From Crocinitomicaceae bacterium (lineage in GTDB: Bacteria; Bacteroidota; Bacteroidia; Flavobacteriales_D; Crocinitomicaceae), in assembly GCA_003247185.1 (NCBI GenBank), contig QKAV01000064.1, positions 6,015 through 70,014 on the forward strand: a stretch of 64,000 nt of DNA, given 5' to 3'. Below the pieces are notes generated by a model. The model was not told where the DNA came from. It saw only the letters and a program-made list of their open reading frames with translations, and ran no database searches. The position numbers and the translations under genes were made by a program. How positions within the stretch are numbered: position 1 is the stretch's first letter; every line of letters starts with the position of its first letter. Positions 15,807 to 39,342 of this stretch are shown piece after piece.

Positions 15807-16208
15807 CTATACAAAAAAATGCTCGTTTCCGGTAATACCGTTCTCATTCACTTTGATGATTGTGTCAATAAGTAACTTCAGGTCCTGTGATTTACTCACA
15901 AATGAACTTGCTCCGAGTTTTTTAACTAATTCAATATGATGTCTGTCGTAGTTTAAACTAAACATGATGACTTTGATATCCGGGAAATTGTTGCGAATAA
16001 AATTCAAGGTATCGAACCCATCCAGTACAGGCATATTAATGTCCAAAATGACGATATCCGGAAATGTAGTGTCCAGGTTATTTATTAATTCCAGTCCATT
16101 ACTTGCAGCACACACAATATTAAGACGACTATTAGACTGGATATACTTTACGATCAAAGATCTCATTGTTTCGTTGTCTTCAGCTATGCCAATTTTGATC
16201 TGTCTCAT
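15807..16208 (-). CDS. Receiver-only response regulator (NarL/FixJ-like REC, output domain missing)
   Basis: IKIGIAEDN...DIVILDINMPVLDG...KVIMFS...FVSK receiver motifs. The ORF stops right after the REC domain. See the finding on a decayed HTH downstream. Confidence 0.75.
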   Translation of the reverse strand: MRQIKIGIAEDNETMRSLIVKYIQSNSRLNIVCAASNGLELINNLDTTFPDIVILDINMPVLDGFDTLNFIRNNFPDIKVIMFSLNYDRHHIELVKKLGASSFVSKSQDLKLLIDTIIKVNENGITGNEHFFV

Positions 16209-16319
16209 TATTTTCTTTTTTAGTGAAAGAACTTTAGGAAATCTAAATGAAGTCCGGAGGAAAAATTTGCATCTACTACACTACAAGATTCTCCTCCGGA
16301 TTCTTCACCAGGAAAGTGG

Positions 16320-18569
16320 TTATTTGTAATCCATTTTTACAATTATGAATTCTGTTCTCCGGTTGAGTTGGTGCAGTTTTTCTTTCTCTTCTTCAGAACC
16401 AGCTTTTTTAATTTCTGCATCAGAGATTTTCAATTTACTTTCACCATAACCTTTTCCGGTAATCCTGCTCTTATCAATACCTTTGGAAATAATGTACTGT
16501 GCAGAGGATTTCGCCCGCTTGTCAGATAATGATTTATTGTAAGAGGCACTACCTCTGCTATCGGTATGAGATCCTAATTCAACGACCATTCCAGGGTTTT
16601 CTTTCATGATTTTAACGACCTTATCCAATTCAATCGCTGCGTCAGGACGAATATCAAAGCTGTTCAAATCAAAGTAAATAGGGTTTATTTCCACTACATC
16701 ATTAAGGTCAGTAGAGCCTTCTTCTATTTTTATGAGTTCAATAGGAGTCCCGGTATTGTTGATATTTATGTTATCCCTGACAGAGAGGACATAATTCAAT
16801 TCGCGTGTAACAATTACATAACCTTCTTTATTGTATCTGACACTGTAATTTAAAGAATCGCCATAGTGAAGAGACTTCAATACTTCAGATTTCATTTCTC
16901 CTTTATTATCACTCGTTAATTCAAGAACCTGTTTACCGGTACGTTTGTCAATCAGGGTAGTTTTAACACCTTCCAATGGAGATGTTGTTCCTTTTTCTAC
17001 AATTGTCCCGTAGAGATAGTAATCAATATGCGGAGTGAGTGCTATGTCCTGATTGAATTCGTCAGCATCATTTGGAATATGGATATCTGTTTCGGATTCT
17101 TCGTAGTTATTTCCAGCTGCCGAAATAATGATATCATCAATTCCTTCAGGAACCAAAACTTCGTACTGTCCTGTTTGATCTGATCTTACTTCATCAATTA
17201 CATTTCCCTGGTTATCCATGATAATCAGTTTCACGCTGTCGAGATTATCTCCGGATGCAATATCCGTTACGTTCCCATAAACCTGAATTCCACTTCTGAT
17301 AGGAACGTCTTGTGTGAAATAATAGAAATCATCGCTTCCCGCTCCTCCTTCACGATTAGAGGTAAGGAATCCGTGTTTTTGTGCGATATCGCTTATGAAA
17401 CCAAAATCATCCATTTGACTATTGACAGGCGCACCCAAATTTTCAACTTTTTTTGGATGCAGATTCTGGTTCATTTTTGCAACAAAGATGTCCAGCCCAC
17501 CAAGTCCCGGGTGCCCGTTGGATGCAAAGAACAGAATGTTTTCTCCGGGGTGCATATACGGGAAGAACTCATCCAATGAGGTATTCACTTTATTCCCCAG
17601 ATTTTCCATTTCACCGGTAGAACCATCTTCCCTGATTTCTACTCTGTAGAGATCGGAATGCCCGAATCCACCAGGTTTGTCGGATGCAAAAAACAGGTAT
17701 TTACCATCTGCAGATAAGGATGGGTGTGCACAGGAATAATTTTCTCCGTTGAAAGGTAAAATACGCATGTCTTTCAAACGACGTCCATCCAGACGAGCTC
17801 TGTATATATTCAGATAGGAGAGGGACTCTTTTGTTGATTCTTCCGACGTGTTTTTGGTATTTGCGGCAAAATAGAGGTAGTTATTAATACTATCGTAGCA
17901 CACAGGCCCCGTGTTATGTTTAAAGATGGATTTCTTCCCTTTTATTTTTTTGAGGTCTGAAATATTCCCTGCTTCATCCATATCACCGACGTAGAGTCTG
18001 TAGAAGTAATCATTGGAACCTGCATCCAATCTCATTACAGGCATTTTACTTCTTTTGTTCCGGGATACGAATACTCTCTCTTCTGTGTAGAAATTTACCG
18101 TCATTTCAGAAGAAGGTGTATTTATAGTAGGGTCATACAGGTCAAAATTGCCATTATCCTTTTGTAATTTGCTCAGATTTTCGGTCTCACTCAATAGTTG
18201 GCGTGTAACATCTGTAGAACCATATCTTTGCTCATATTTTTGCAATAATTCAATAGAGCCCTTATAGTCACCTGATTGTCGGTGAATCAGGGCAGATCGT
18301 AATAATTGCTCTTTATGCAGGTGATCATTTTTTTCCGAAATATGATACCACTCCAGTGCTTTTTCAAGGTTTCCGGATTTGTCGTAACATTCTGCCAGAC
18401 GATTGTCAACTTTTGATGAATCAATGCCTCTTTCGAGCACATCTTCATAACCTTCGGCAGCATCGTGCCAGGCCATATCACCATATTTTTTATCTGCATA
18501 TTTTAAACGGTTTCCCTGGGCTATTCCAAGGTACGGAACTAAGGCAACCAGGATTACTAATTTTTTCAT
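16320..18569 (-). CDS. TPR + PD40 (TolB-like) + CarboxypepD_reg-like + C-terminal OmpA peptidoglycan-binding protein
   Basis: Signal peptide and TPR-like N-terminus. PD40-type repeats are present (SADGKYLFFASDKPGGFGHSDLY; ENILFFASNGHPGLGGLDIF). The OmpA_C motif is IYFDLNSFDIRPDA...ELGSHTDSRGSASYNKSLSDKRA. Confidence 0.85.
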   Translation of the reverse strand: MKKLVILVALVPYLGIAQGNRLKYADKKYGDMAWHDAAEGYEDVLERGIDSSKVDNRLAECYDKSGNLEKALEWYHISEKNDHLHKEQLLRSALIHRQSGDYKGSIELLQKYEQRYGSTDVTRQLLSETENLSKLQKDNGNFDLYDPTINTPSSEMTVNFYTEERVFVSRNKRSKMPVMRLDAGSNDYFYRLYVGDMDEAGNISDLKKIKGKKSIFKHNTGPVCYDSINNYLYFAANTKNTSEESTKESLSYLNIYRARLDGRRLKDMRILPFNGENYSCAHPSLSADGKYLFFASDKPGGFGHSDLYRVEIREDGSTGEMENLGNKVNTSLDEFFPYMHPGENILFFASNGHPGLGGLDIFVAKMNQNLHPKKVENLGAPVNSQMDDFGFISDIAQKHGFLTSNREGGAGSDDFYYFTQDVPIRSGIQVYGNVTDIASGDNLDSVKLIIMDNQGNVIDEVRSDQTGQYEVLVPEGIDDIIISAAGNNYEESETDIHIPNDADEFNQDIALTPHIDYYLYGTIVEKGTTSPLEGVKTTLIDKRTGKQVLELTSDNKGEMKSEVLKSLHYGDSLNYSVRYNKEGYVIVTRELNYVLSVRDNININNTGTPIELIKIEEGSTDLNDVVEINPIYFDLNSFDIRPDAAIELDKVVKIMKENPGMVVELGSHTDSRGSASYNKSLSDKRAKSSAQYIISKGIDKSRITGKGYGESKLKISDAEIKKAGSEEEKEKLHQLNRRTEFIIVKMDYK

Positions 18570-18610
18570 AAGTGGTCAATTTTATTACTCATTAAACGCG
18601 CTGTATTTCC

Positions 18611-19531
18611 TTAGAAGAATCGTGGAGAAATGAATTTTTTGTCTTTTCTCAACAGATCAAAACTGAGTAAAATCTCATGCGTTCCGAAATTGTATCGTAC
18701 TAATTTTGTGGTAGAAATGTCAAAGGCATATCCTAATTTGAATTGATCGGAAATTTGCCATTGAAACAGGCCTCCGGCGCTTTCCAGTACCCTGTAGTTC
18801 GCTCCGAACCAAAATTTGTCGTAAACGATTAATGCCAGGGAAGCGTCTAGCGCAAAAGGAGCATCCATAGTGAATTTCATCATTGTACTTGGTCGCAGCT
18901 TCAGCATTCTGTTAATACTGAAATATCCACCCAAAGAGAAATAGTAGTGTCTGCGATCATTGTAGAAAATTTGAGTAGGAGAGTAACTGGACTCTGTAAC
19001 CCGGGGAACGGAGACTCCACAATACCAATATTTGGAGTGATAATAGATTCCGGCGCCGATATTCGGGAGTATTTTATTTTGAATGTCCTGCCCGAACATC
19101 GGATCATTTTGATCAACGGTATACAGTGTACTAAGTTTCGCATTCAGAAGATTGATCCCCCCGGTTACCCCAAATGCTAATCTTCCTTTGTGCTTTTTAA
19201 ATCTAAGGCTGTATGCGAAATCAGCATTTATCCATGTTTGGTTTAAGGGGCCAACTCTATCATTTAAGACACTGAGTCCAACTCCGATAGATTCATATTT
19301 AAGCGGGGAGTGAATCGCAAGAGATTGGGACATCGGAGCCCCATCTATCCCAACCCATTGCTGGCGATGAATCAAGGCAATGTTGAGCATTTCCCTGCTA
19401 CCGGCATAGGCGGGGTTATAGTACAGCATATTATCATTATACTGAGTGAATTGTGCCTCTTGTTGTGAGAGTCCGTGCACACTACAAGAAAGTCCGATTA
19501 TAAGCGCGACTAGATGTTTTTTCGTTTTCAT
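18611..19531 (-). CDS. PorP/SprF-family type IX secretion membrane protein
   Basis: Hallmark N-terminus QQEAQFTQYNDNMLYYNPAYAG, about 300-aa beta-barrel-like protein, C-terminal ...ISPRFF. Confidence 0.85.
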   Translation of the reverse strand: MKTKKHLVALIIGLSCSVHGLSQQEAQFTQYNDNMLYYNPAYAGSREMLNIALIHRQQWVGIDGAPMSQSLAIHSPLKYESIGVGLSVLNDRVGPLNQTWINADFAYSLRFKKHKGRLAFGVTGGINLLNAKLSTLYTVDQNDPMFGQDIQNKILPNIGAGIYYHSKYWYCGVSVPRVTESSYSPTQIFYNDRRHYYFSLGGYFSINRMLKLRPSTMMKFTMDAPFALDASLALIVYDKFWFGANYRVLESAGGLFQWQISDQFKLGYAFDISTTKLVRYNFGTHEILLSFDLLRKDKKFISPRFF

Positions 19532-19550
19532 GATATGTTCTTTTAAACAG

Positions 19551-20261
19551 TTAAACTGATTGTGAATATTGATCGTCTTCTAAATGTTTATTGATAAGGT
19601 ATCTGTAACAAATTCCGGCAATTACGCTTCCGGCGATCGGAGCAATAATGAATAACCATAATTGATCAAGTGCCCAATCACCGACGAAAACAGCCTGACT
19701 GAAACTTCTGGCAGGATTAACGGAAGTGTTTGTTACCGGAATGCTTATTAAATGAATAAGTGTTAGTGCGAGACCTATTACTATTCCTGATACTTTTTTA
19801 AGTGCTTCACTTTTCGTAACGATCAGTATGATCAGCACGAACATGAATGTCATTAAGAATTCAGTTAAAAAAGCCGGGTACATAGAAAAATTACCTGGAG
19901 AGTATTCGCCGTATCCATTGGCGGCAAAGTTTCCTATCGAGCCATCTTTTTCTGAAACAAGTATATAAAGTATGGCGGCACCGGTAAGGGCTCCATTCAG
20001 TTGACCTGCTATGTAAAGGAGAAGTGTATGCGGTTTAACTTTTCCTGTTATCCATGCACCGATTGTAACGGCCGGATTGAAATGGCCACCTGAAATAGTA
20101 CCAAATGTGTATGCCATTGTAATTAAAGACAGACCGAAAGCGAGTGAGACGCCAAGTATGCCGATACCTGTTTCCGGAAATGTTGCAGACAGTACTGCAC
20201 TTCCGCATCCTCCCAGTATAAGCCAGAAGGTTCCGATAAACTCTGCTATAAAGATTTTCAT
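19551..20261 (-). CDS. aqpZ: Aquaporin Z
   Basis: MIP family with two NPA boxes (HFNPAVT, VNPARS). The N-terminus FIAEFIGTFWLILGGCGSAV is typical of AqpZ. Confidence 0.9.
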   Translation of the reverse strand: MKIFIAEFIGTFWLILGGCGSAVLSATFPETGIGILGVSLAFGLSLITMAYTFGTISGGHFNPAVTIGAWITGKVKPHTLLLYIAGQLNGALTGAAILYILVSEKDGSIGNFAANGYGEYSPGNFSMYPAFLTEFLMTFMFVLIILIVTKSEALKKVSGIVIGLALTLIHLISIPVTNTSVNPARSFSQAVFVGDWALDQLWLFIIAPIAGSVIAGICYRYLINKHLEDDQYSQSV

Positions 20262-20274
20262 AGTTTGGAAATTT

Positions 20275-21501
20275 TTATTGTCGTTTTAGATAGAAATACC
20301 CTTTATAGATCTTTCCGTAATTGGCAGATGATGCATCGCCTCCCAATTCAAGCAGATAGTAATACGTTCCTTCAGGAAGTTGATCTCCGCCAACGTTTAA
20401 GCTGCTTTGTGAACGGCCATCCCAATCATTTTGGTAGTTATTGCTTTCATATACAAGGACGCCCCAGCGATTGAAAATGGTCATCTTTGAGTTCGGGTAC
20501 ATTTCCAATCCATCGATCTTTAATACATCATTATACCCATCGCTGTTTGGAGTGAACCCCTGTGAAACTGCAACTTCCGGAGCAATATTATAGGTGGCCA
20601 ATGTGAAAATACCGTAAGACGACATCTTTACCGGAGTAGTTACAGTTTTATTGAATTCATCAACAACTCCGCCTTCATCAATCCACATATTCTGCGCGGG
20701 ATCCCAACGCACGATGTGAATGGTCTGATAGGTACCAGGAAGAATCTGCGATGGAGTAGTGGTATATTCATCCCAGCTAAGGGTAATTAAAACGGGACTT
20801 CCCGGGTTGGAAGGTGTAATACTCCAGTACTCCTGGTCATCAATGAATGTAATTAGAGCTGAAGCCTTGTTTGCCAAAGGGTAGAGTGGATCAGGATTCA
20901 GGTAGAAATACTTGGCAGTGAACATATCACTTGCCTGATCAGGAGCTGAAATACCGGCAAATCTGTAATATCCGCCATCACCGATGGGATACTCAAAGGC
21001 CGTATTGCCATCTTTTCGTACCGGACCATCCACGTGGCTGAGATCGCTTGTATTGATGTGATTGGCATTGTTTTGGAAGATCACCAGACCACCGAAATCA
21101 TCATCGTTTAAGATTCCCTTGTTAAAATCAGCTTCATTGTCAATACTGATCTCTCCACTTACTTCAAAGGATGCTGTGTTACTCGAAGGATTATCAAATA
21201 ATGCATCATAAAAATAGGATGGATTACTTCCGCTCAGCTGCTGTACCACATTTCCCAGAAAGCGTGTGTAGCCCTGTAACCCTGTTGTGAAATTTACACT
21301 ACCATCATTATTAAAATGGTTATAAACAAATACCTCACCATCATTTACAAATGTTCCGGAGGGTTTGTTGTCAAAAGCGCCAACAGTTGCAAATATAGTT
21401 CCGGGCTGAACCTGAACCAAACCTGTGTTCACCGTTTGTGCGCGACCTGGTGATACCTCTAAGATCGCAAGCATCACCAATAAAGTAAACTGTGTTTTCA
21501 T
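20275..21501 (-). CDS. Secreted protein with T9SS type-B (gliding-motility-associated, CHU_C-like) C-terminal sorting domain
   Basis: Signal peptide. C-terminus [38 protein letters not shown]...GTYYYLLEL...KGYFYLKRQ matches the type-B CTD pattern (TIGR04131-like). Confidence 0.8.
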
Positions 21502-21632
21502 AACTCTCTTTATTTACTGTTTTCAATTGACGGCTTCCCGCAGGACCGGGTCATCTGGGTGCACATTTGTTGAAATCATTGCTCCCGGCCCCACAGGTTG
21601 CCTATTTTTTGTTTTTAAAACCTAAAGTCATA

Positions 21633-24600
21633 TCAGAACTTCATATCTCTTTTTACATTATCCAGATAATATTTTCCGTGCCGCATAAAGTCAGTTGGCC
21701 AAATTCCGAAGGTGAAATATCTCGCCCCGTTGAAATCATATATTGTTTCATAATTACCCCCATTTTGTACCAATGGCCTGATGTGAACATTTGTTGTAAA
21801 CCCGGCATCGTCAGCTACGATTAATGACACTTTGGTAATATCACTGAACCCGGCTACTGCAGTGGCAGGGATCCGAACCAGTACTGAGTCAACTGTACCT
21901 GTTTCCTGAACAAACCAGTTACGCACCAGTTTTTCAGCAAAACCATGAGGTATTCCGGAATTGGCAATGGAAATACTCGCGTTGTCGTTACCCCAGATAA
22001 GAAAACTGTTGTCTGTAGCAAATGAATTTGAGTTTGCCAGGTTCGAGACTTCGATGCCTCCCAATCCAATGGTTATCAGCGCATCAGAATTTACCGATAT
22101 GGATTGTTTCTGATTCAGAGCGGAGAGATCATCACGACCGATTCCGGCGATGTCATTGCTATAGGTAGCGTATGTCGCTGCGTCCCATAGTACAGATGCG
22201 TCTGCGGAAAGATAATCCTGAGGAGTAGTCTGATCCAGTGTAATCCCGTATTTAATTGCTAGATACGACTCGATCCGCCGCAATTCCGTTCCGGAAGTTG
22301 TCTTATTGTTATACACAATCACTTCGTCGATCTCCCCGTTAAAGTAGGAGGTACCGATTAACTTGTGGACACCAACAGTGTTATTGTTTACCGTTTGGAT
22401 GTAATTAAAGGTAATTTGTGCGTCCGTGGCTACCTGCAAACCATCCTGTCTTATCAGTTTCCCGGTTGTATTGTTGTAAGTCGCTGTGTAAATATCCGGT
22501 TCATTTGGAGTAGGGTTACCTCCCCAAAAGCCACTATTTGACCATGAAGATTCAAATTTATCGCCTTCATCCAGTTGATGGTATATCCCGTTGTTTGTTC
22601 CATAACCTCCAAGGTACAAAACCTGTGCTGCCTTGGTCGCGGTCTGGCGTTGTACTGAAACAATGGAATAATTGGTATTCCCGTTATCCAATATGCCGAT
22701 AGGCAAATCAAAATAATTATTTGTACCGTTGAAGGTAACAGACGGGTTAAAGTTAACATCCAGGTGATTGAATGTCGGCAAGTTTACCGCAGATCCATCC
22801 CTTCCGTGTCCTGATTGATCGAGCCAGGTACCTAAGGCATTCCCATCGGCGGCCGGTATACCTGTATCCGAATAAACACCTATATCGGCCCTTAGCCATA
22901 ACGAAAGGTTAGAAACCACCCCACCCGGGGAAGCCTGGCTAAGCCCCAAGGTAAACAGGTCTCCATTATTCAGGTCGACCCCTGAGAAAACAGCTTGCCC
23001 ATCTATCAGGATACCGCCGGAAATAATCGTAGCATTGGTAAAATCACCGTCGCCATCAGTATCGATGTACAATTCCAAATCGTATGCAAGCGGTGCCATT
23101 CCGTCAAAACTTACGGTGAGGTTTGAAACACTCCCGGTTTCAGCGACTTTCCATTCCCGTCCCATGCGGTACAGCGCTGCCGCTCCTGCAGGAAGTTCAG
23201 ACGTTTGTAAGGAGGTGCTGGCATTGTCGTTACCCCATACCAGGAAGTTTTGATCAGCAGCAAAACTATTTGTGTTTGTTTGGTTTGTTGCGGCTACCTG
23301 TCCCAATGCAATGGTAACTATCGCATCGCTGTTTATTGAGCGTGATTGCTTTTGTTCCAGTGCAGAAAGATCATCGCGGCCAATTCCGGCAATATCGTTA
23401 CTGTAAATCGCATTACTTGTAGCATTCCAAATTACCGTAGCGTCGGAGGACAAGTAATTGTTTGGAGAACTCTGGTTCAGGGTAAGCCCGTATTTGAGGG
23501 CTAAGTAGGAATTAACCTGCAGACGCTCAGTTGCAGTAAGCGCCCTGTTGTATAAGATTATTTCCCCTGTTTCTCCGCGAAACACAGTACCTGAAACTGC
23601 CCCGATATGTTCATTTCCTGCGGCCAGCGAAAAATCGGTGGTGTTAGTAGCAGAAGTGGCCTTATACTGCCCGTTAAACTGGATACCCCAGTTATTGGTT
23701 GCGCTATGGGTACCATAAATGTTCCAGTCGGAAGTTTGGATTGGATCGCCAACAATAGAAGCAACTCCTGTTTTTCCGTCAGCAATCGTGTTATTGGCCG
23801 GGTTAAAAGCAAGCCTGTCGTTGGTAAACGAGCCCTGGTAAACATTCAAATCACTCCATGTATAATGAAAGCCTCTACTACTGCCTCCAAAATCATACGG
23901 ATGCCCGTAAGCACCTGCTCCTCCGTTATCTTTTACTACCGTAATGGCCTCAGCAGCCGTGTAAGCAGTAACAAAAGGACTAGCTGTAAACCTGAAATAA
24001 TCATCCCCGTCAAAATCAATTATCGGATTAAAATTTAAACTACCCTCAATAAAAGCGGGGTCACCAAAAGACATATCTGCGTGTCTGACATTGGCGGATT
24101 GGTTTTTCCAGGAGCTTATAGCAGTAGTTCCTGTAACTCCGGCATCAGCTTTTAGCCACAGCTGTAAATCGGCTGCCACTCCTCCGGGTGCTTGTTTTGA
24201 AAGTCCCAGGGTAAACAAGTCACCGTTGTTCAGGTCGATCCCGGTAAAAACAGCTTGTCCATTTATCAATGTGCCTCCGGTAACAATTGTCGCATTGCTG
24301 AAATCGCCATCCCCGTCCGTATCGACATACAACTCAAAATCATAAGCCTGAGGATAAATATTGTCAATATCGAAAGCAACTGAAAGATTGGAAACACTTC
24401 CCGTTTCTGCTACCTTCCATTCACGGATCAGTCGCTGACTGGCTACAGCTCCTGTTGGTCGTTCACTTGTCTTCAAACCAGTACTGGTATTATCATTACC
24501 CCACAACAAGAAGTTTTTGTCAGCAACAAAAGCATTGGCATTTGTCTGATTGGAAGAGGCGATACTACCCAGTGCTATGGTAACCAAATCGTCACTGTTT

Positions 24601-28739: not shown

Positions 28740-28764
28740 TGTAGTTCTGTTCCGGGCGGTTAAA

Positions 28765-28806
28765 ATTCAGGAGGCTTTTTTTGGTAGTACAGACCACCTC
28801 CTGAAT
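28765..28806. other. Intergenic stem-loop between the 1114-aa and 2368-aa genes
   Basis: attcaggagg / cctcctgaat form a 10-bp inverted repeat with a 22-nt loop. On the minus strand it is followed by tttt. It may be an attenuator, processing site or weak terminator. Confidence 0.4.
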
Positions 28807-28824
28807 TTCGCCCATGTACTGTTT

Positions 28825-31800
28825 TTATTTACTTAAATAGTTCAACGTAACATCTCCGATACGCACTACTGCATTATTGGCACTGGTCATTTTAAGTACC
28901 AACACGGCGGTTTGTCCGGCTCCCAATGTTGAGAGGGATGCGTTAGGAATGGTTACAGTAGACCACGTAGCTGAAGCTGATGCGGGAATAGTTGCAATAG
29001 GAGTCGCCCCTGATTCCAGGTACAGTTCAGCAGAAACATTCGCTCCTGTATTTGCCATGTAGTCTAAAACAATTGGACTTGTTGCATCCCAGCTCACGAA
29101 ACCTTTTGGTAATGTGAATCGAAGGATTACATCATAATCCTGATCGGTTACTTCAGAAGAATACCATTCGTAGTAATTCATCCAGCTGTTTGCACTACCC
29201 GCATTATCCGAAGTCATCATACCTAGGTTATTGGAACCATCTGCATAGAGTGCTGCACCTGCATATTCGGCACTGTACACATACTGCACAGTATCTATTA
29301 AGTTCAGATATGCACCACCATCAGTTCCTACTGTGATACTATTGAGTGCATCGGTACTAACCACATTGGCAGAGTCTGTAACTCCATTCTCGTCAGTATA
29401 CGTGATTATACCGGTAGCAACATCCTGCGTCATGATGGTTAACGTCTCCATTGAAGAGATGTCGATTGTTGTCATTACCCCATCCTCATTTGTATAGGTG
29501 AATGTGCTGTCACCATTATCGACAAGGGTAGTGGTAGTCTCATTCGCTGCAAAATCGATGAGCGTAGCCGCACCGTTTTCATCTGTATAAGTAAAGGTGC
29601 TGTCACCGTTATTCACCAGCGTAGAAAGTGTTTCTACTGCTGCGATGTCAATGATCGTTGCAATCCCGTCTTCATTCGTGTAGGTGAAGGTACTATCACC
29701 GTTATCTACCAATGTGGAAAGCGTTTCCGTAAAAGTTACCGCAACCCCATCTTCATTGGTATATGTGAAGCTTCCATCGGTATTGTCCACAAGAGTAGTG
29801 GTAGTCTCATTCGCTGCAAAATCGATAAGTGTAGCAGTGCCGTTTTCATCTGTATAGGTGAATGTGCTGTCGCCGTTATTCACCAGCGTTGAAAGCGTCT
29901 CCACTGCTGCGATGTCAATGATAGTTGAGATCCCATCTTCATTCGTGTAGGTGAAGGTACTATCACCGTTATCTACCAGTGTTGAAAGCGTTTCGGTGAA
30001 AGTTACTGCAACCCCATCTTCATTCGTATATGTAAAACTTCCATCGGCATTATCGACAAGGGTAGTAGTCGTCTCATTCGCTGCAAAATCGATGAGCGTA
30101 GCCGCACCGTTTTCATCTGTATAGGTGAATGTGCTGTCACCGTTATTCACCAGCGTAGAGAGTGTTTCTACTGCTGCGATGTCGATGATAGTTGAGATCC
30201 CATCTTCGTTTGTGTACGTAAATGTACTATCACCGTTGTTGACCAATGTGGAAAGCGTTTCCGTAAAAGTTACCGCAACACCATCTTCATTGGTATATGT
30301 GAAGCTTCCATCGGTATTGTCGACAAGGGTAGTAGTTGTCTCAAGGTTAGTAATGTTGATCACAGTTGCCACTCCATCCTCATCTGTGTATGTCATCGTA
30401 CCATCACCGTTGTCCACCAAAGAAGTCAATGTCTCCATGTTGGCGATGCTGATGATAGTTGCTACACCGTCTTCGTCAGTATAAGTCATGGTACCATCAC
30501 CATTGTCTACTAGTGAAGTCAGTGTTTCACTGCTTTGGATGATACTTGTCAAACTGTCCAGAAACTGTTGGTTCGTTACCAGTGTATCACTTAAACTGTT
30601 CACGAAAGTAGAGTTCGAAAGCAGTGTGTCGCCATAAGTGTAGATATCTGAAACCACATCAATTAGGGTTGTAGTTCCATCTTCATCGGTGTAGGTGTAA
30701 GTACCATTACCGTTATTTACCAAAGTAGATAGTGTTTCACTTGTTTGAATGATGCTGGTCAAACTATCCAGAAACTGTTGGTTCGTTACCAGTGTATCAC
30801 TTAAACTGTTTACGAAAGTAGAGTTCGAAAGCAGTGTATCTCCATAGGTGTAGATATCTGAAACCACATCAATTAGGGTTGTAGTTCCATCTTCATCGGT
30901 GTAGGTGTAAGTACCATTACCGTTGTTTACCAAAGTGGAGAGTGTTTCACTTGTTTGAATGATACTGGTCAAACTGTCCAGAAACTGTTGGTTCGTCACC
31001 AGTGTATCACTCATGCTGTTCATGAATGTTGTGTTCGAAAGCAGTGTGTCACCATAGGTGTAGATATCGGAAACCACATCAATTAGAGTTGTTGTTCCGT
31101 TTTCATCTGTGTAGGTATAGGTACCGTTACCGTTATTTACCAGCGTAGAAAGTGTTTCAAGATTTACAATGTTAATTACTGTCGCCACACCATCTTCATC
31201 CGTGTAAGTCATTGTCCCGTCACCGTTGTCTACGAGTGAAGTCAATGTCTCCATATTGGCTATGTTGATGATCGTTGCTATGCCGTCTTCATCTGTATAG
31301 GTCATTGTGCCGTTACCATTATCTACCAGTGAAGTCAAAGTTTCGTTATTGGCTATGATTGTTGATATGCTGATCACGGTAGCCACGCCATTCTCATCCA
31401 GATAAGTTATCGTTCCGTCTCCATTATCTACCAGAGTAGTTAATGTTTCGTTAGCAGCTATCATGGCCGAGATATCTATAGTCTGATTTGTTCCGTTTTC
31501 ATTTGTGTAGGTAAATGTTCCATCGCCGTTGTCCGCGATATTGGTTACAGTTTCGTTATTGGCAATAATTGTTGACATATTGATCACCGTAGCCACACCA
31601 TCCTCATCGAGATAGGTAATTGTTCCATCTCCATTATCCACGAGAGCAGTTAATGTTTCATTTGCAGTAATTGCCGTTGCATCAATAAAGGCTCCGCCAT
31701 CAGATCCTAAGGACAGGATATTACCTCCGTCTACGCTGACTACGTTAACTGTACCCGGTGTTAATCTTACCCATTGCCCATTTGTGATATCCATAGTAGC

Positions 31801-32169: not shown

Positions 32170-32208
32170 TTTGTTTTTTTTGAAATGTCATAGAATTTTC
32201 CCCTGAAG

Positions 32209-32242
32209 GAACTCCTCTCTTTTTATTGGAAGTGAGGAGTTC
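32209..32242. other. Intergenic stem-loop between the two paralogous repeat-protein genes
   Basis: gaactcctc / gaggagttc form a 9-bp inverted repeat with a 16-nt loop. There is no clear U-tract. Confidence 0.4.
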
Positions 32243-32264
32243 TCCGGGAATTTTCATAAAACTT

Positions 32265-35200
32265 TTACCGTCCTGTAATTCGTACCCAATCGGTTCCGGT
32301 ACTCATAAATTCTGAACCTGTTCTGGAAGCTATAGAAGGGACATTAGACGGATATGTTCCGGGTACAGTACTATTAAAGAATAGTGCAGCACCGGTATCA
32401 TTCGCTAATTTTATCACTCGACCTGGAAAAGATGCTGCCGGAGGTAATGTTAAATTACCATCTACACCCAAATTGGAAAGCACAACAACATAATCTGTAT
32501 TCAGCCATCCTACGGTAACTCCTGATTCTACTCTGTAGCTGTAATAAACTGCTCCATTGCTCTTTTCGAACGTCCCGTCGATTACAAAACGTCCGTTTGC
32601 TCCGGTCGTAAAAGTCAGGTTATTGTCGTTATGTGTTACAACACGAGGGCCGGCAAGTGTACCGTCTGCATTATAGATATTAACTGCTGCGGCTGTTACG
32701 GTAGAAATACCATTCTCGTTGGTGTAAGTATAGGTACCATCTCCGTTATCTACGAAGGTTGAAACCGTTTCATTAAGTGTTACTACAGTACCAGTACCAT
32801 CATTATGAGTAGCTATGGTATGAGCCGTGCCTCCGAGTACTTCTGCGTCTGTATTTACGGCATTTTGAGTAACTACTGATGTTCCTGCTACTGGCACATA
32901 TAATGCTCCGTCAGTTCCTGCTACAACACTATTTCCGGCGTCTGTTGAGATCAGATTTACATTGGCATTGTTTGCGTCTTCATTATTATATACCAACTGA
33001 CCTGCGGAAATACTTAAAGTGGTATTTGTTTCATTGGCAGCTATTGCGGCAGTGTTTAAATAGGCTCCACCGTCTGCTCCGGCGATTATTATATTGCCAG
33101 GAGCGGCACTGATGACATCGGCTGTTTGAGTTGTACCGTTTTCATTGGTATAAGAAATGATACCCGTAACATTACTTTGGGTAAGATTCGTTACGGTTTC
33201 ATTAATAGGAGTAGCACCCCCAACCTCATCATGATAAATACCAATCTGATGCCCTACCATAGTATTTGTAATACCGGTAGTCGTTTCCGGAACAACAATA
33301 TTCGTAAACGCGCCGTTTTCGTCTCTATAGGTTAATGTACTACCTAATATACTCAAAGCAGTTACGGTCTCTTCTATAACCTGAGGAGTACCGTTCTCAT
33401 TCGTATAAGTTGCTATCGTTTTTACACTAGCAGAGGCGTTGTTGTCAGCTACTGATGTAATTGTTTCGTCAATATCGACCGTTGTACCATCTGCTTCTGT
33501 TACTGTTGCAATAAGATGACCAGCAATAACGTTTGAAACAGACATACCATTTGTGTTAATTACGGTTGCTGTTCCCGCTGCATCGGTAAAGGTATATGTA
33601 CCATTTAGGTTATTCACCAATGTTCCTTTGGCATCAAACGTTGTTACTGTTCCGTTTTCTGAAGTATAGGTAAATGTACCATCGCCATTGTCCACAAGAG
33701 TGGTCAATGTTTCATTTCCGCTTACAAGGCTTGCTGCCGATTTTTGATGTAATTGACCTGTAGTTGCATCAGCAACAACAACAACATCAGTTGCTCCTGC
33801 CGCAGGTAAGGTCCTTACTCTAACTGTACCCGCTACGTCTAACTTATCGGTCAGCGCTGCCGATCCTGTTCCAAGACCAACCTCGCCATTCGGCTTCAAC
33901 GTCATCCATATACTGCCCGCATTCCTGAACTGCAATGAGTTATCTGCCGCCTGATTGTATATTCCCCAGTCGGACACCGAGGCTGTAGCTAGAATTTTCA
34001 ATCCGGCCAAGCCTCCTGTCGAAACAAGTTGTAAAGACGTTTGATTGATACCGGAATTAATAACAGCACCTGTATTTGTAGGTATCGTAGTTTGCCCGAT
34101 GGCAACCCGCCCCATGGTATAAATATCTTCTGAATTTAAAGTAGCGGCAGCATTATTATCCGTGCCAAACCAAGGCTCTAAAGAGGTAGTACTGATCGTA
34201 GTAACCGTACCTCCTGCATCAGTAAAGGTATAAGTTCCATTCAGATTATCTACTAAAGTCCCTTTAGCTTCAAAAATGGTTACAGTACCATTTTCTGAAA
34301 TATAGGTAAATGTCCCATTGCCGTTGTCAACCAGCGAAGTCAAAGTCTCCATATTGGCGATGTTGATGATAGTTGCAACACCGTCTTCGTCTGTGTAAGT
34401 CATTGTCCCATCACCGTTGTCCACCAAAGAAGTCAATGTCTCCATGTTCGCGATGTTGATGATCGTTGCCACACCGTCCTCGTCTATGTAAGTCATCGTA
34501 CCATCGCCGTTATCAACCAAAGAAGTCAATGTCTCAAGGTTCGCAACGTTGATGATAGTCGCTACACCATCTTCGTCGGTGTAAGTCATTGTACCATCGC
34601 CATTATCTACGAGTGAAGTCAGTGTTTCCATGTTCGCGATGCTGATTACAGTAGCAATGCCATCTTCGTCCGTGTAAGTCATTGTACCATCACCGTTATC
34701 AACCAAAGAAGTCAATGTCTCCATATTGGCGATGTTGATCACAGTAGTGATCCCGTCTTCGTCTGTGTATGTCATTGTACCGTCACCGTTATCAACCAGC
34801 GAAGTCAATGTCTCCATGTTCGCGATGTTGATGATAGTTGCTACGCCGTCCTCGTCTGTGTAAGTCATAGTACCATCACCGTTATCAACCAGGGAAGTCA
34901 GTGTTTCCATGTTTGCGATGTCGATGATTGTTGTTACACCATCTTCATCTGTATAGGTCATTGTCCCATCACCATTGTCAACCAGAGTAGTTGTTGTTTC
35001 AAGGTTCGCAACGTTGATGATAGTCGCTACGCCATCTTCATCGGTGTATGTCATTGTACCATCGCCATTATCTACGAGTGAAGTCAGTGTTTCCATGTTC
35101 GCGATGTTGATCACAGTAGCTACCCCGTCTTCGTCTGTGTAAGTCATTGTACCATCACCGTTATCAACCAGCGAAGTCAACGTCTCCATGTTCGCGATGT

Positions 35201-36173
35201 TGATCACAGTAGCTACCCCGTCTTCGTCCGTGTAAGTCATAGTACCATCACCGTTATCAACCAAAGAAGTCAATGTCTCCATGTTCGCGATGTTGATGAT
35301 CGTTGCCACACCGTCTTCATCCGTGTAAGTCATTGTACCATCGCCATTATCTACGAGCGAAGTCAGTGTCTCCATGTTGGCGATGTTGATCACAGTAGCT
35401 ACCCCGTCTTCATCGGTATAAGTCATAGTACCATCGCCGTTATCTACGAGCGAAGTCAACGTCTCCATGTTGGCGATGTTGATGATCGTTGCTACCCCGT
35501 CTTCGTCTGTGTACGTCATTGTGCCGTCACCGTTATCTACGAGCGAAGTCAACGTCTCCATGTTTGTGATGTCGATCACGATTGCCACCCCGTTTTCGTC
35601 TGTGTATGTCATTGTACCATCGCCATTGTCCACCAGTGTTGTAAGCGTTTCACTGCTTTGGATGATGTTGGTCAAATTGTTCAGAAACTGTTGATTTGTT
35701 ATCAACGTGTCACTCAGATTGTTTACGAAAGTGGAGTTGGAAAGCAATGTATCACCATAGTTGTAGATATCAGCCACGACATTAATGATCGTAATGGTAC
35801 CATCTTCACTTGTATAGGTGTATGTACCGTTACCATTATCAATCAATGTTGTAAGTGTTTCAGTGTTATTATCACTGGTCAGTAATCGCAACCATTTGGT
35901 ACCGTCCCAGTAGTAATAACCAGGAGTTACATCAGCTGCTGTAGCGGTATTAAAAACCAGCAAACTGGTTTTATCACTACCACTTGCCATGTTTGCAATT
36001 GTAGTTACATCCGTTGTACTCGTTAATGCTACTCTGGGGATCATTATCCCTTTATCGCTAGCAACTACATCCAACTGTGTTGACGGATCTGGGATTGGTG
36101 TCCCGATACCGACCTGAGCATAGGTTGTGCCCCCCAGGAGCACCATACCTAACAGAAAGTAGATTCTTTTCAT
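32265..36173 (-). CDS. Repeat-rich secreted protein (1302 aa): conserved N-terminal head, 14 x 31-aa tandem stalk, fibre-like middle region, distinct C-terminal domain
   Basis: Signal peptide ...TTYAQ. The head is VGIGTPIPDPSTQLDVVASDKGIMIPRVALTS...LLVFNT...GYYYWDGTKWLRL. It has 14 near-identical ETLTSLVDNGDGTMTYTDEDGVATIINIANM units. An internal echo of the N-terminal motif is NGEVGLGTGSAALTDKLDVAGTVRV. I recognise no T9SS CTD. Confidence 0.8.
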   Translation of the reverse strand: MKRIYFLLGMVLLGGTTYAQVGIGTPIPDPSTQLDVVASDKGIMIPRVALTSTTDVTTIANMASGSDKTSLLVFNTATAADVTPGYYYWDGTKWLRLLTSDNNTETLTTLIDNGNGTYTYTSEDGTITIINVVADIYNYGDTLLSNSTFVNNLSDTLITNQQFLNNLTNIIQSSETLTTLVDNGDGTMTYTDENGVAIVIDITNMETLTSLVDNGDGTMTYTDEDGVATIINIANMETLTSLVDNGDGTMTYTDEDGVATVINIANMETLTSLVDNGDGTMTYTDEDGVATIINIANMETLTSLVDNGDGTMTYTDEDGVATVINIANMETLTSLVDNGDGTMTYTDEDGVATVINIANMETLTSLVDNGDGTMTYTDEDGVATIINVANLETTTTLVDNGDGTMTYTDEDGVTTIIDIANMETLTSLVDNGDGTMTYTDEDGVATIINIANMETLTSLVDNGDGTMTYTDEDGITTVINIANMETLTSLVDNGDGTMTYTDEDGIATVISIANMETLTSLVDNGDGTMTYTDEDGVATIINVANLETLTSLVDNGDGTMTYIDEDGVATIINIANMETLTSLVDNGDGTMTYTDEDGVATIINIANMETLTSLVDNGNGTFTYISENGTVTIFEAKGTLVDNLNGTYTFTDAGGTVTTISTTSLEPWFGTDNNAAATLNSEDIYTMGRVAIGQTTIPTNTGAVINSGINQTSLQLVSTGGLAGLKILATASVSDWGIYNQAADNSLQFRNAGSIWMTLKPNGEVGLGTGSAALTDKLDVAGTVRVRTLPAAGATDVVVVADATTGQLHQKSAASLVSGNETLTTLVDNGDGTFTYTSENGTVTTFDAKGTLVNNLNGTYTFTDAAGTATVINTNGMSVSNVIAGHLIATVTEADGTTVDIDETITSVADNNASASVKTIATYTNENGTPQVIEETVTALSILGSTLTYRDENGAFTNIVVPETTTGITNTMVGHQIGIYHDEVGGATPINETVTNLTQSNVTGIISYTNENGTTQTADVISAAPGNIIIAGADGGAYLNTAAIAANETNTTLSISAGQLVYNNEDANNANVNLISTDAGNSVVAGTDGALYVPVAGTSVVTQNAVNTDAEVLGGTAHTIATHNDGTGTVVTLNETVSTFVDNGDGTYTYTNENGISTVTAAAVNIYNADGTLAGPRVVTHNDNNLTFTTGANGRFVIDGTFEKSNGAVYYSYRVESGVTVGWLNTDYVVVLSNLGVDGNLTLPPAASFPGRVIKLANDTGAALFFNSTVPGTYPSNVPSIASRTGSEFMSTGTDWVRITGR
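34350..35651 (-). repeat. 14 x 93-bp in-frame tandem repeat (31-aa units)
   Basis: Codon-exact boundaries were checked: E175 at 35649-35651 and M608 at 34350-34352. Protein units are nearly identical while the DNA copies differ mostly at synonymous sites. Confidence 0.95.
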
Positions 36174-36376
36174 GAGTTAGAAATATTAATATTTAGGTTA
36201 TTTGAACGACTCGGAAAACATGAGGCTTCCCATGTTTGATTCCACGCTTTTAATTCACGTTTTTTTGATCTTTTTTTTAATTCATTGGGAGGGTAACCCA
36301 ATACCCTAATACCGACTTGAGCGTAAGAACTGCTTACCAGTATTTTTGTGCCCACTAGAAAGCTGAATTGTTTCAT
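36170..36376 (-). other. Orphan paralogous 5' gene fragment / 68-codon upstream ORF whose TGA overlaps the ATG of the 1302-aa gene
   Basis: MKQFSFLVGTKILVSSSYAQVGI (36308-36376) parallels MKRIYFLLGMVLLGGTTYAQVGI of the downstream gene. This includes the DNA string TA(C/T)GCTCA(A/G)GTCGGTAT. The sequence then diverges into a basic tail. The stop at 36170-36172 overlaps the ATG at 36171-36173 as ATGA. Confidence 0.45.
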
Positions 36377-37234
36377 TTTTTGGAATTTGGTTGGTTTCAA
36401 AATTTTAACCACCACGACAATAGATGAGAAACAACTCAATGAATCATCAGATGGTTAGTTATATCAGGATGTCCCCCATTTAGGCACTTCAATTTGCACT
36501 TAATCCCATATTTATTGTTCATGGGAAACTGCGGCTAAAAAATGCCTAAAGTGGTTCGCTGTCCATGGTGTAAAGGTGTTGGAAGACATAAGGAATAACA
36601 ATAGTTACGGGACAAACAGGACCTATAAGAGACGGAATGGATTTTAGGTATGTTTAGTATTGAAAAATGTGTTTATGTGGCAATTTTGCACCTTACATGC
36701 TTTTTTTGAGGGATAGAATTCCTGACAATTGTCAGGAATTGGACTATTCTGTATCAGAATAGCATGCTTTGAAAGCAGAAAAGAGAGTGAAAGATTCAGA
36801 TTATTGCCGATTCGGGCACAATAGTTCAATTTCTGTACGGAAATGGTTAAAAAAAGAAGACTTCAATAGATTCTTGAGACAACCTATAGAGTAATCTTCG
36901 GCAACTTTATTTCAGGAAGGATCAATTATAGAGAATAACATGGAAATTACAGGAGGTATTTTGCCAGAGAGTAAAAGATCCGGTAAAGAAAGCGATGTTG
37001 TATAATGAAGTGTAAAGATAGAATCCGGGTGAATATGTATATCCGTGAAGAATATACCTTCAGGGTCGTGTATAAATACGTCCGGCTTTTTGTTTTGATT
37101 TATCAGAACAGGAATATGTAATGTATTCCATACATTTTAGGGATCAGGTTGAAATGGGGAGGAATATATATCGCAGATTGCTTATATCGGTGTAACCCCT
37201 GTTTCAGAAAACAGATGTTTTCAAGGAAATTGAA

Positions 37235-38832: not shown

Positions 38833-39342
38833 CTAATTTTTCACGTCTTTATTACAGACATGGCTTTTAAGTTGTTGGATTTTGGATCTGGATACAGGGA
38901 TTCTGAAACCACCATGAAGCATTACGTGAAATTTTCGGGTGCCACCTTTTGCTTCGATTATATGATTGAGGTTGATAATGAAAGAACGATGACATTTGAT
39001 AAAAAGAAGTTTCGACAGATCAAATTCGTCTTCAAAACTCTTTAATGTTTTCCGCAAAACATGTGTTGCCATTTGGTCTGAGTTGGAAATATAGTGTATA
39101 TGCAAGTAGTTGGCATTGGATTCGATGAAGACAATTTTTTGGGGATCCAGAATAACTGTTTCTTCAGTTTTGTTGTCAGAGGAGATTTTAATACAACCCT
39201 CAATATGGGGAGGTACTGTTGGCTTGTTTTTGATTTTCCTTTTTGTGCGAATTAATGGAAAATGGCTTTGTAGAAACCTGTTTAAAAGAGGTGTGCCTAG
39301 CAGTATGCTAAACATTAATGCTAATGGTTCAATTCTATCCAA
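38833..39342 (-). CDS. Short LytTR-domain protein (169 aa, no receiver, only a vestigial hydrophobic N-terminus)
   Basis: IVFIESNANYLHIHY...KCHRSFIINLNHI...IPVSRSK. It looks N-terminally truncated relative to the two membrane-fused paralogs. Confidence 0.65.
   Translation of the reverse strand: MDRIEPLALMFSILLGTPLLNRFLQSHFPLIRTKRKIKNKPTVPPHIEGCIKISSDNKTEETVILDPQKIVFIESNANYLHIHYISNSDQMATHVLRKTLKSFEDEFDLSKLLFIKCHRSFIINLNHIIEAKGGTRKFHVMLHGGFRIPVSRSKIQQLKSHVCNKDVKN

Follow-up and report, generated by a model that had tools for sequence, protein, structure and literature searches.

Organisation of the locus

The locus described here lies on the minus strand of the window, which is the whole stretch of 64,000 nucleotides (nt) taken from contig QKAV01000064.1 of a Crocinitomicaceae bacterium. 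It consists of eight co-oriented open reading frames (ORFs) separated by short gaps, which measure 41, 19, 13, 131, 85, 95 and -4 nt when counted from position 16320 upwards (Table 1). A small protein of 408 amino acids (aa) with a type IX secretion system (T9SS) C-terminal domain (CTD) of type B, a PorP/SprF-family protein and a PorE-like protein form a trio, and three giant proteins, which lack a CTD and are called tag-less in the following, are encoded upstream of it. A previous, sequence-only reading of this DNA had proposed an uncharacterised cell-surface fibre system. The trio is already known (PMC9143113; PMC12618676), and this part of the proposal cannot be called uncharacterised; its conserved partnership with tag-less giants, by contrast, appears to be undescribed. 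A conserved cluster of this kind suggests an undescribed way of getting fibres onto the cell surface or of holding them there. The coordinates, strands and sizes of the eight ORFs were as claimed, the profile searches agreed with the domain identities given for the OmpA, PorP/SprF, AqpZ and type-B CTD proteins, and the quoted C-termini of the giants as well as their summed length (1302 + 1114 + 2368 = 4784 aa) were right.

Table 1 Features of the gene cluster and of two adjacent genes, with positions in the window
Feature	Position	Strand	Basis or remark
PorE-like protein, 749 aa	16320-18569	minus	TPR, PD40 beta-propeller, carboxypeptidase-regulatory-like and OmpA_C peptidoglycan-binding domains
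PorP/SprF-family outer-membrane protein, 306 aa	18611-19531	minus	PF11751, TIGR03519
Aquaporin Z (aqpZ), 236 aa	19551-20261	minus	NF003838, 301.5 bits (cutoff 256)
Type-B-CTD protein, 408 aa	20275-21501	minus	CHU_C (PF13585), TIGR04131
23-aa C-terminal tail of the 2368-aa giant, IWPTDFMRHGKYYLDNVKRDMKF	21636-21704	minus	Candidate short docking or sorting motif
Beta-helix/DUF8202 giant, 2368 aa	21633-28739	minus	Pfam Beta_helix, E 1.6e-9; precomputed PF26628
PTL fibre-like paralogue, 1114 aa	28825-32169	minus	Divergent PTL N-domain, repeat arrays
PTL fibre-like protein, 1302 aa	32265-36173	minus	PTL N-domain, 31-aa repeats
Vestigial 5' end of a PTL-fibre gene, 89 aa	36170-36439	minus	DNA similar to the beginning of the 1302-aa gene
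Receiver-domain protein, possible associated regulator	15807-16208	minus	
LytTR-domain membrane protein, possible associated regulator	14682-15560	minus	

The absence of a type-A or type-B CTD from the giants was confirmed with hidden Markov models. The last 150 aa of each giant did not match TIGR04131, TIGR04183, NF033708, PF13585 or PF18962 even at E <= 10, and the whole giants gave no type-B CTD match at E <= 0.01. The models recognised both positive controls, namely the 408-aa protein as type B and the 449-aa protein encoded upstream of the locus as type A (TIGR04183, 35.3 bits). Across the related loci introduced below, 71 of 72 partner C-termini were without a match to the type A, B and C CTD models, and the single CTD-bearing one belongs to a 439-aa type-A protein of F. 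arsenatis. All three giants possess a Sec signal peptide at the N-terminus. They had been treated as one set, which is correct in so far as all of them are CTD-less, carry Sec signals and look like fibres or adhesins; however, they belong to two families, a pair of PTL proteins and the beta-helix/DUF8202 giant.

Conservation of the gene neighbourhood in the Flavobacteriaceae

A genome scan with a profile of the N-terminal domain of the 408-aa protein (408 N-domain) yielded 31 loci from about 15 genera of the Flavobacteriaceae, whose neighbouring genes were assigned by ORF and BLAST analysis; the full set of related loci amounts to 33. The sequence-only reading had held that a lack of conserved gene order in relatives, together with independent transcription of the genes, would speak against a common system. 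The order turned out to be conserved: a PorP gene directly downstream accompanies the 408-family gene in 29 of the 31 genome loci, and a PorE-like gene is located downstream of PorP in 28 of them. The loci breaking this rule are two from Arenibacter and one that reaches a contig end. Upstream of the 408-family gene, one to four large genes are found on the same strand, the products of which are hypervariable. Nearly all of these products begin with a signal peptide, which is followed by a domain of about 80 aa with the pattern Q[VT]G[VI]GT..P....L.V....[KR]G.L[IL]PR..LT...LLV[FY]NT...PGYYYW, corresponding to PF26696 (PTL_trimer). Beyond this N-domain, the partner proteins contain 31-aa repeats, collagen-like GXY runs, coiled coils, Collar, lectin or PKD domains and several small C-terminal domains, which indicates that they are extracellular in type.

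The placement of the PTL genes is strongly biased. Searches with the domain model detected 40 PTL ORFs in 217 kb of upstream sequence on the same strand, three in 294 kb of downstream sequence (all in one locus) and none on the opposite strand. At least one PTL ORF is present in 22 of the 24 loci for which 3 kb or more of upstream sequence is available, and additional loci outside this count agree with the upstream placement. Moreover, the complete order of the window, i.e. PTL fibre, RIGDVTLNY-type fibre, tailed giant, 408-family protein, PorP and PorE-like protein, recurs in Flagellimonas taeanensis and in the metagenome contig L041, although the 408 N-domain is only 35-36% identical there. 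In F. taeanensis, the giant is followed by a 411-aa CHU_C protein, PorP and a 738-aa PorE-like protein. The beta-helix giant cannot be regarded as a constant member of the locus, as the earlier description implied, because the giant or a tail-bearing analogue occurs in some loci only.

The type-B trio and the aquaporin gene

Type-B cargo of the T9SS depends on a cognate PorP/SprF-like protein that is encoded immediately downstream, and PorE, PorP and PG1035 form a complex (PMC9143113; PMC12618676). F. johnsoniae possesses five or six operons consisting of genes for a type-B cargo, an SprF-like and a PorE-like protein; Fjoh_3952, the cargo of the Fjoh_3952-3951-3950 operon, forms static foci on the surface, and this operon type has been modelled as a static, peptidoglycan-anchored surface complex (PMC9143113; PMC12618676). 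Judged by the encoded sequences, the 408-aa, PorP and PorE-like proteins of the window are a module of this described type, with gaps of 13-41 nt and with aqpZ intercalated. The likeness to the PG1035-PorP-PorE and Fjoh_3952-3951-3950 operons extends to the three families, to their order and to the size of the cargo, as the 408-aa protein is about as large as PG1035 (~50 kDa). However, those operons have been treated as cargo, shuttle and tether only, whereas the cargo of the window belongs to a distinct and strongly conserved family of ~410 aa, is preceded by tag-less PTL fibres and, in some loci, tail-bearing giants, and is separated from porP by the inserted aqpZ gene. The window also differs from these operons in its PorE-like protein, as described below.

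Another system invites comparison. In the sprCDBF operon of F. johnsoniae, the type-B cargo SprB and its shuttle SprF are co-transcribed with the upstream genes of SprC and SprD, two CTD-less proteins that support the function of the cargo. Both systems thus combine a type-B cargo and an SprF-like shuttle with CTD-less accessory proteins encoded upstream. In the sprCDBF system, however, it is the giant SprB that bears the CTD, the cargo is mobile and a PorE-like gene is lacking, whereas the CTD protein of the window is small and the giants are CTD-less. Furthermore, the PorE-like tether of the window predicts a static complex.

The 408-aa protein scored far above the cutoffs of CHU_C (PF13585; 96.9 bits, cutoff 27) and TIGR04131 (63.7 bits, cutoff 35). 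It is composed of a signal peptide, a region of beta-solenoid and beta-sandwich(es) at aa 22-305 and the type-B CTD at aa 311-408 (20278-20571). An AF2 model of high confidence (pLDDT 90) shows the beta-solenoid, the beta-sandwich(es) and the CTD. The CTD of the model resembles 8gl8_D, a chain of a T9SS translocon complex in the PDB; viral models were also matched, again through the CTD only. A search of PDB sequences with the profile of the 408 N-domain gave nothing significant. The family has 704 relatives, and the best 120 of these 704 are 403-449 aa long, contain CHU_C as the sole domain and originate from many genera of the Flavobacteriaceae. The 408-aa protein could have been a C-terminal part split off from the beta-helix giant, but its own signal peptide and the existence of a stand-alone family of constant length ruled this out.

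Across the compared loci, the 408 N-domain is 35-63% identical, as opposed to 30-51% for its own CTD, 34-43% for PorP and 25-34% for the PorE-like protein. It is thus the best-conserved protein segment of the locus, while the upstream partners are hypervariable, as one would expect if this segment were a conserved docking surface. The 408 family is unusual in this respect because type-B cargo proteins are normally conserved in the CTD alone (PMC9143113). Moreover, the mature protein (~386 aa) barely exceeds the region that has been reported as needed for type-B secretion (PMC10202324). We propose that the 408-aa protein serves as a conserved surface adaptor or cap.

The PorP/SprF protein matched PF11751 over positions 3-273 of 273 (263 bits) and TIGR03519 with 252.1 bits (cutoff 90.55). 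Its gene is located 743 nt downstream of the 408-aa gene with aqpZ alone in between, and the protein is presumed to be the cognate shuttle and anchor of the 408-aa protein. The PorE-like protein contains, in this order, TPR (weak, E 4e-4), PD40 (8e-8), CarboxypepD_reg (6e-8) and OmpA (7e-17) domains, i.e. the four-domain architecture described for PorE (PMC12773672; PMC9143113). It remained under the equivalog cutoffs of NF052230 T9SS_PorE (314.3 bits, cutoff 600) and NF053607 CHU_0125_OmpA (401.4 bits, cutoff 620), and its N-terminus, MKKLVILVALVPYLGIAQGN, is without a cysteine and therefore without a lipobox. The combination of PorE architecture, scores below the cutoffs and missing lipobox identifies it as a PorE-like paralogue rather than PorE itself. 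The aqpZ gene is a passenger inserted inside the module. Among the 33 loci, Flavobacterium sp. NRK F10 (L002 11259-11936, L003 2088-2765) was the only case besides the window with an aqpZ gene between the type-B cargo gene and porP, and its AqpZ protein is 57% identical to that of the window.

The PTL fibre-like proteins

The 1302-aa and 1114-aa proteins belong to one family, as both combine a PTL-type N-domain with common 31-aa repeats. The 1302-aa protein consists of a signal peptide (aa 1-19, with cleavage before Q), the PTL N-domain (aa 20-100; 35874-36116), some 14 tandem repeats of 31 aa, which are encoded by a 93-bp unit present in 14.2 copies (34321-35636), and a C-terminal domain ending in STGTDWVRITGR. 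Its N-domain matched the PTL model with an E-value of 4e-35. A profile led by this N-domain retrieved 759 proteins, and the best 120 of these 759 all carry PF26696 and are 40-64% identical; as the assignments of PF26696 and PF26628 were taken from precomputed annotations, this test of the window domain against PF26696 is an indirect one. The orthologous genes in the related loci are likewise annotated with PF26696, and Flavobacterium sp. NRK F10 encodes an orthologue of the 1302-aa protein that has the same N- and C-termini. An AF2 model of the PTL N-domain reached a pLDDT of 77.

The 1114-aa protein starts with a signal peptide (aa 1-27) and a divergent PTL N-domain, which plain hmmsearch missed at E <= 1e-3 and which was detected by an hhalign comparison with the PTL profile (probability 96.3%, E 1.6e-9). 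The N-domain is followed by arrays of 31-aa, 70-aa and 89-aa repeats and by a C-terminal domain of ~215 aa (28828-29472) ending in VRIGDVTLNYLSK, which is 50-55% identical in the loci L015, L036 and L041. The C-domain of these loci (L015 5398-5787, L036 9568-9957, L041 1761-2150) has the ending VRIGD[VI]TLN[YF]. Strong scores for this C-domain were obtained only in loci that also encode a protein with the MRHGKY tail described below, and each time the C-domain protein is encoded directly upstream of the tail protein. The two may thus constitute a partner pair. Searches of PDB sequences with the 1302-aa protein and with the 1114-aa C-domain gave nothing significant, and the 1114-aa protein had no record in an exact-sequence look-up. 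Weak Pfam matches of the repeat proteins to DUF903, OmcA-like_N and Cadherin_5 were recognised as repeat-driven artefacts (0-1 significant stretches) and were not used.

The ORF of 89 aa at the head of the cluster had been described as an orphan 5' fragment or upstream ORF. The former description fits, as the ORF is the decayed 5' end of a PTL gene and is probably not a functional gene. It encodes a signal peptide and AQVGI followed by unrelated sequence, its DNA is similar to the beginning of the 1302-aa gene as far as GCTCARGTCGGTAT and diverges after that, there is a 4-nt overlap with the ATG of that gene, and the ORF has no Pfam or NCBIfam match. This decayed duplicate suggests that recombination or cassette exchange took place at the head of the locus in the past.

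The size of the family and a PTL gene in an unrelated locus led us to reject PTL as a dedicated tag of this module. In the DUF8202 proteins P0227, P0229 and P0230, the PTL-type domain (...KGFVINRLTAAQIAAIP...EGMMVYDTT...) is located at the C-terminus and not at the N-terminus. Together with the existence of multi-copy PTL proteins, this indicates that PTL is a mobile module, which is not confined to N-termini.

The beta-helix giant and the short C-terminal tails

The giant of 2368 aa consists of a signal peptide, a right-handed beta-helix and four LamG-like plus DUF8202 modules, and its family is distinct from that of the PTL proteins. The public call of the identical gene starts 25 codons downstream, resulting in a protein of 2343 aa, which is annotated with Beta_helix and PF26628. 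A homologue search was performed with the last 700 aa. The best 120 homologues of this region all carry PF26628, they have about 1000-1200 aa and about half of them end in a type-A CTD. The giant shares the LamG-like and DUF8202 modules with these type-A cargo proteins at 31-45% identity over the last 700 aa. By contrast, the giant and its orthologues from Flagellimonas and the metagenome possess an additional N-terminal beta-helix and are encoded beside a type-B module. The C-termini differ as well. In an alignment with the CTD-bearing homologue P0163, the similarity runs to YFT[FL]G, after which P0163 continues with a linker of ~190 aa and the CTD, whereas the giant ends with IWPTDFMRHGKYYLDNVKRDMKF. 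Thus, the type-A CTD is replaced in the giant by a 23-aa tail (DFMRHGKYY...MKF). The DUF8202 passenger exists in three forms: with a type-A CTD, with a PTL domain (P0227, P0229, P0230) and with an MRHGKY tail beside the module.

The tail is not restricted to the window. The protein P0239 of Flagellimonas taeanensis, which has 950 aa, combines Beta_helix and DUF8202, lacks a CTD and ends with the same tail, DFMRHGKYFQGGVEKPMKF. The MRHGKY tail was also found in L039/L041 and, in L010, L015 and L040, on an unrelated protein family. The members of the latter family, which come from Lacinutrix and Psychroserpens-like loci, have only the last ~35-50 aa in common with the DUF8202 giants. A degenerate DNA pattern for D[FYH]MRHGKY[FY] occurred once in the window (0 expected), in four related loci and in five metagenome contigs. 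Three of these five contigs encode a C-terminal tail directly upstream of a 408-family gene, one of them repeating the whole gene order of the window, and in the other two contigs the pattern is internal to an unrelated enzyme. Taken together, all six distinct C-terminal MRHGKY tails (6/6) are located directly upstream of a 408-family gene.

A second tail, of the forms ...[LI][LIM]ITNP[MNH][IL]Y..K.. and ...NCSR.NP.LR.R..K., is found at the C-terminus of the neighbouring tag-less protein in eight more loci (L021 9532-9921; L026 3128-3517; L027 11441-14830 and 15272-17713; L028 7135-9645 and 10031-12550; L032 9534-9923; L033 3083-3472; L046 4798-9060; L047 3379-8496). The carriers of this NPx[IL]-type tail are otherwise unrelated, CTD-less large proteins encoded beside 408-family genes. 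In the two Arenibacter loci, PTL proteins are encoded upstream of the 408-family gene and two ITNPHIY-tail proteins downstream of it, which represents an orphan type-B arrangement with tag-less partners.

Modules in common with bacteriophages

The repeats of the two PTL proteins match the tail fibre family phrog_35342, with E-values of 2e-45 for the 1302-aa protein and 2e-35 for its paralogue, as well as the tail fibre of the Cellulophaga phages phi4:1 and phi17:2. The likeness lies in a 31-aa module with the motif DNGDGT-TYTDEDG. The DUF8202 region of the giant matches a family of phage virion structural proteins. Moreover, partner genes of related loci encode Collar domains, and the combination of a conserved proximal end with variable distal ends is reminiscent of tail-collar fibre proteins. 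In contrast to phage tail fibres, the proteins of the window are encoded by the cell together with Sec signal peptides, and only the repeat module, not the PTL N-domain, matches phage records. Genes for sheath, tube, baseplate, capsid, terminase or integrase are absent from the window, which besides the locus codes for regulators, a TonB-dependent receptor, type-A cargo proteins, SufBD and the like. On this sequence evidence, the fibres of the window are best described as cellular, exported, fibre-like proteins that have modules in common with phage receptor-binding proteins. For several proteins from phages and viral metagenomes (BFVD, e.g. A0A6J5L8Z9 and A0A7S9STS8), annotations or models show a C-terminal domain of the gliding-motility (type-B) kind.

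Transcriptional signals and surroundings

GC-rich hairpins (e.g. AATTCAGGAGG...CCTCCTGAATT) are located 3' of the 1302-aa, 1114-aa and PorE-like genes (32170-32264, 28740-28824 and 16209-16319, respectively). Those within the cluster could act as partial terminators or as mRNA-stabilising elements. A scan of the locus for sigma-70 promoters and terminators performed no better than on shuffled sequences, and an intergenic site of the Bacteroidetes type (TTG-N17-21-TAnnTTTG) was not found in the locus. Genes for LytTR-domain proteins, a receiver protein and a Reg_prop/Y_Y_Y/His_kinase sensor are unusually dense around the locus (120-2618, 9588-10442, 14682-15560, 15807-16208, 38833-39342). LytTR, receiver and histidine kinase genes also flank the related loci L002, L008, L009, L016, L030 and L036.

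Two ordinary type-A CTD cargo genes are present just upstream on the same strand, at 37235-38584 (449 aa) and 41968-44292 (774 aa, with SBBP beta-propeller repeats). The organism thus uses canonical T9SS signals beside the tag-less giants. Further away (45480-50194), a 1367-aa homologue of TMEM260-like protein O-mannosyltransferases, which could be relevant to the glycosylation of surface proteins, is followed by a polysaccharide deacetylase.

How the tag-less proteins may be linked to the trio

The reading that we favour, with a rough probability of 0.45, is that the tag-less fibres and giants would be passengers coupled to the trio and recruited via the PTL N-domain or the tails, in a surface-fibre locus that is conserved in the Flavobacteriaceae. 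By homology to the known trios, the 408-aa protein would be exported by the Sec system, pass the T9SS translocon by means of its type-B CTD and be held through this CTD by the co-encoded PorP/SprF-like barrel, which the PorE-like protein would tie to the peptidoglycan through its OmpA_C domain. The steps of export, retention by PorP and tethering by PorE have been established for PG1035-PorP-PorE and Fjoh_3952-3951-3950 (PMC9143113; PMC12618676). The upstream cassette would provide the real passengers, namely Sec-exported, tag-less and probably trimeric proteins comprising two PTL repeat fibres with lectin-like tips and the beta-helix/DUF8202 giant. These passengers may associate with the N-terminal beta-solenoid/beta-sandwich of the 408-aa protein or with the TPR domain of the PorE-like protein, and the contact would be made through the PTL N-domain or the short C-terminal tail (of the MRHGKY...MKF kind here and of the NPx[IL] type elsewhere), no other elements of theirs being conserved. 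They would either be co-translocated with the 408 adaptor in a piggy-back manner or be docked onto it afterwards. The outcome would be exchangeable adhesive fibres on a socket that is tethered to the cell wall. In favour of this reading stand the known nature of the trio, the strong synteny and the recurrence of the complete order, the lack of a CTD at 71 of 72 C-termini of partners that are extracellular in type, the three forms of the DUF8202 passenger, which point to a swap of domains, the portability of the MRHGKY tail and the conservation of the 408 N-domain.

A more specific proposal, which we consider possible but doubtful, is that the ~410-aa type-B protein is a dedicated adaptor exporting or mounting the CTD-less PTL fibres and tailed giants, and that the tails are a new class of docking or sorting signal. 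The readers of the short tails might be the beta-solenoid of the adaptor or the TPR domain within the PorE-like protein. Type IX secretion would thereby gain its first example of cargo recruited by piggy-back or by an adaptor. Piggy-back export, a new sorting signal and the assembly of a multi-subunit fibre had been the options of the sequence-only reading, and the MRHGKY-type tail, as a candidate C-terminal motif, would fit the second. The searchable literature gave no description of the partnership with PTL fibres, of the replacement of a CTD by a tail, of the two tail motifs or of PTL_trimer/PF26696. As domains, PTL_trimer and DUF8202 are already listed in Pfam (PF26696 and PF26628).

Several observations weigh against a coupling of the tag-less proteins to the trio. 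The PTL domain is very common, with 45,447 clusters at 50% identity and many multi-copy proteins (2-10 copies), and CHU_C, PorP and OmpA genes are all far away from at least one PTL gene, which is part of a locus for pectin utilisation. The slot directly upstream of the 408-family gene is heterogeneous, being occupied by a tail-bearing, a PARCEL-repeat or a PTL protein depending on the locus. In Arenibacter (L027 9935-17713, L028 5659-12550), the 408-family gene has no adjacent PorP or PorE-like gene. Owing to the hairpins 3' of the large genes, the giants may be transcribed apart from the tight 408-aqpZ-porP-porE unit. The structural searches did not help either, as the AF2 model of the 408 N-domain had no match in the PDB or among viral models and Foldseek found no match in the PDB for the model of the PTL N-domain. 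Finally, a precedent for piggy-back or CTD-less export by the T9SS was not found in the searchable literature.

The PTL abundance, the hairpins beside a tightly packed trio and the heterogeneous upstream slot, together with the recurrence of LytTR-type regulators near the loci, would be accommodated if the genes were co-located but mechanistically independent. The locus would then be a hot spot, prone to recombination, or a co-regulated island of variable adhesin and fibre genes, the products of which use another export route and are anchored independently, and the trio would be a separate small static complex, for instance one in which the type-B protein caps PorP, as has been proposed for PG1035. 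We regard such independence, the main rival of the coupling, as somewhat unlikely. It does not explain the extreme bias in position and orientation of the PTL ORFs (40 upstream on the same strand, 3 downstream, 0 opposite), nor why the tail adjoins a 408-family gene in 6/6 C-terminal occurrences and on unrelated proteins, nor the preservation of the whole order between loci with as little as 35% identity of the core proteins. Moreover, giants of Bacteroidota that are neither lipoproteins nor barrels are not known to have an alternative route across the outer membrane. The 408-aa protein would be dispensable as an adaptor if the tag-less proteins were direct substrates of the T9SS with new signals, either the tails or the jelly-roll-like C-domains of the PTL fibres, which the translocon or the PorP/SprF-like shuttle reads without an adaptor. 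Indeed, the tail sits exactly where the homologues have their type-A CTD and is portable between families, the type C CTD of ChiA was also recognised late (PMC10202324) and one shuttle can serve several type-B CTDs (PMC12618676). Nevertheless, this explanation appears improbable: tails of 15-25 aa are far below any known T9SS signal, with type-B secretion needing >100-200 aa (PMC10202324), the many and unrelated C-termini of the PTL fibres contain no common signal, and it would be left unexplained why a type-B protein that has almost no passenger part but a highly conserved N-domain is always present.

The other explanations are far less probable. The giants could be decayed or truncated T9SS cargo proteins, i.e. 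pseudogenes or products of assembly errors or frameshifts that lost the CTD, for which the decayed gene start at the head of the cluster, the type-A CTD on about half of the best 120 DUF8202 relatives and the error-prone assembly of repeat-rich genes (N-runs in L002, L005 and L030) may be quoted. However, none of the three ORFs is interrupted between signal peptide and stop, CTD-less C-termini are kept in other genera (STGTDWVRITGR, VRIGD[VI]TLNY and the MRHGKY tail), the intergenic gaps of 85-131 nt are too short for a CTD remnant and the genes are identical in an assembly of this sequence that was made independently, which makes truncation very improbable. We consider it equally improbable that the fibres are phage tail fibres in a remnant of a prophage, tailocin or contractile injection system. 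The matches to phrog_35342 (E 2e-45), the phi4:1 tail fibre and the virion family as well as the Collar domains of the partners point in this direction, but they concern fibre proteins that all possess a Sec signal peptide, in a window without phage structural, terminase or integrase genes, and a chromosomal locus that is syntenic across genera and tied to T9SS genes; only the repeats match phage records. Least probable of all is an analogue of two-partner secretion (TPS), in which the PorP/SprF-like barrel threads the unfolded giant and the fibres across the outer membrane. The gene of a giant beta-helix exoprotein beside that of an outer-membrane barrel does resemble a TpsA/TpsB pair, yet none of the eight proteins matched a TPS, POTRA or Omp85-type family in Pfam or NCBIfam, and PorP/SprF proteins have been documented as shuttles and anchors of type-B CTDs rather than as translocators (PMC12618676; PMC9143113).

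Significance

The prediction of T9SS cargo rests entirely on the recognition of a type A, B or C CTD. The present analysis suggests that a large and diverse set of surface proteins of the Flavobacteriaceae is invisible to this approach. The PTL family, with more than 45,000 clusters at 50% identity, includes giant adhesin-like as well as phage-tail-fibre-like proteins. The locus offers a compact genetic system, comprising a putative adaptor, a shuttle, a tether and exchangeable fibres, for studying how CTD-less giants of the Bacteroidota reach the surface and stay there. Should the proposed coupling be false, there would still be a conserved and well-defined neighbourhood of genes, as well as two C-terminal motifs that recur and call for an explanation. 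If it is true, adaptor-mediated recruitment would join the repertoire of the T9SS, the purpose of passenger-poor type-B proteins such as PG1035 would be explained, and short portable tags for surface display would become available. Moreover, the bacteria would possess a hypervariable surface structure with modules of phage receptor-binding proteins, which would bear on adhesion, particle colonisation and phage-host interactions.

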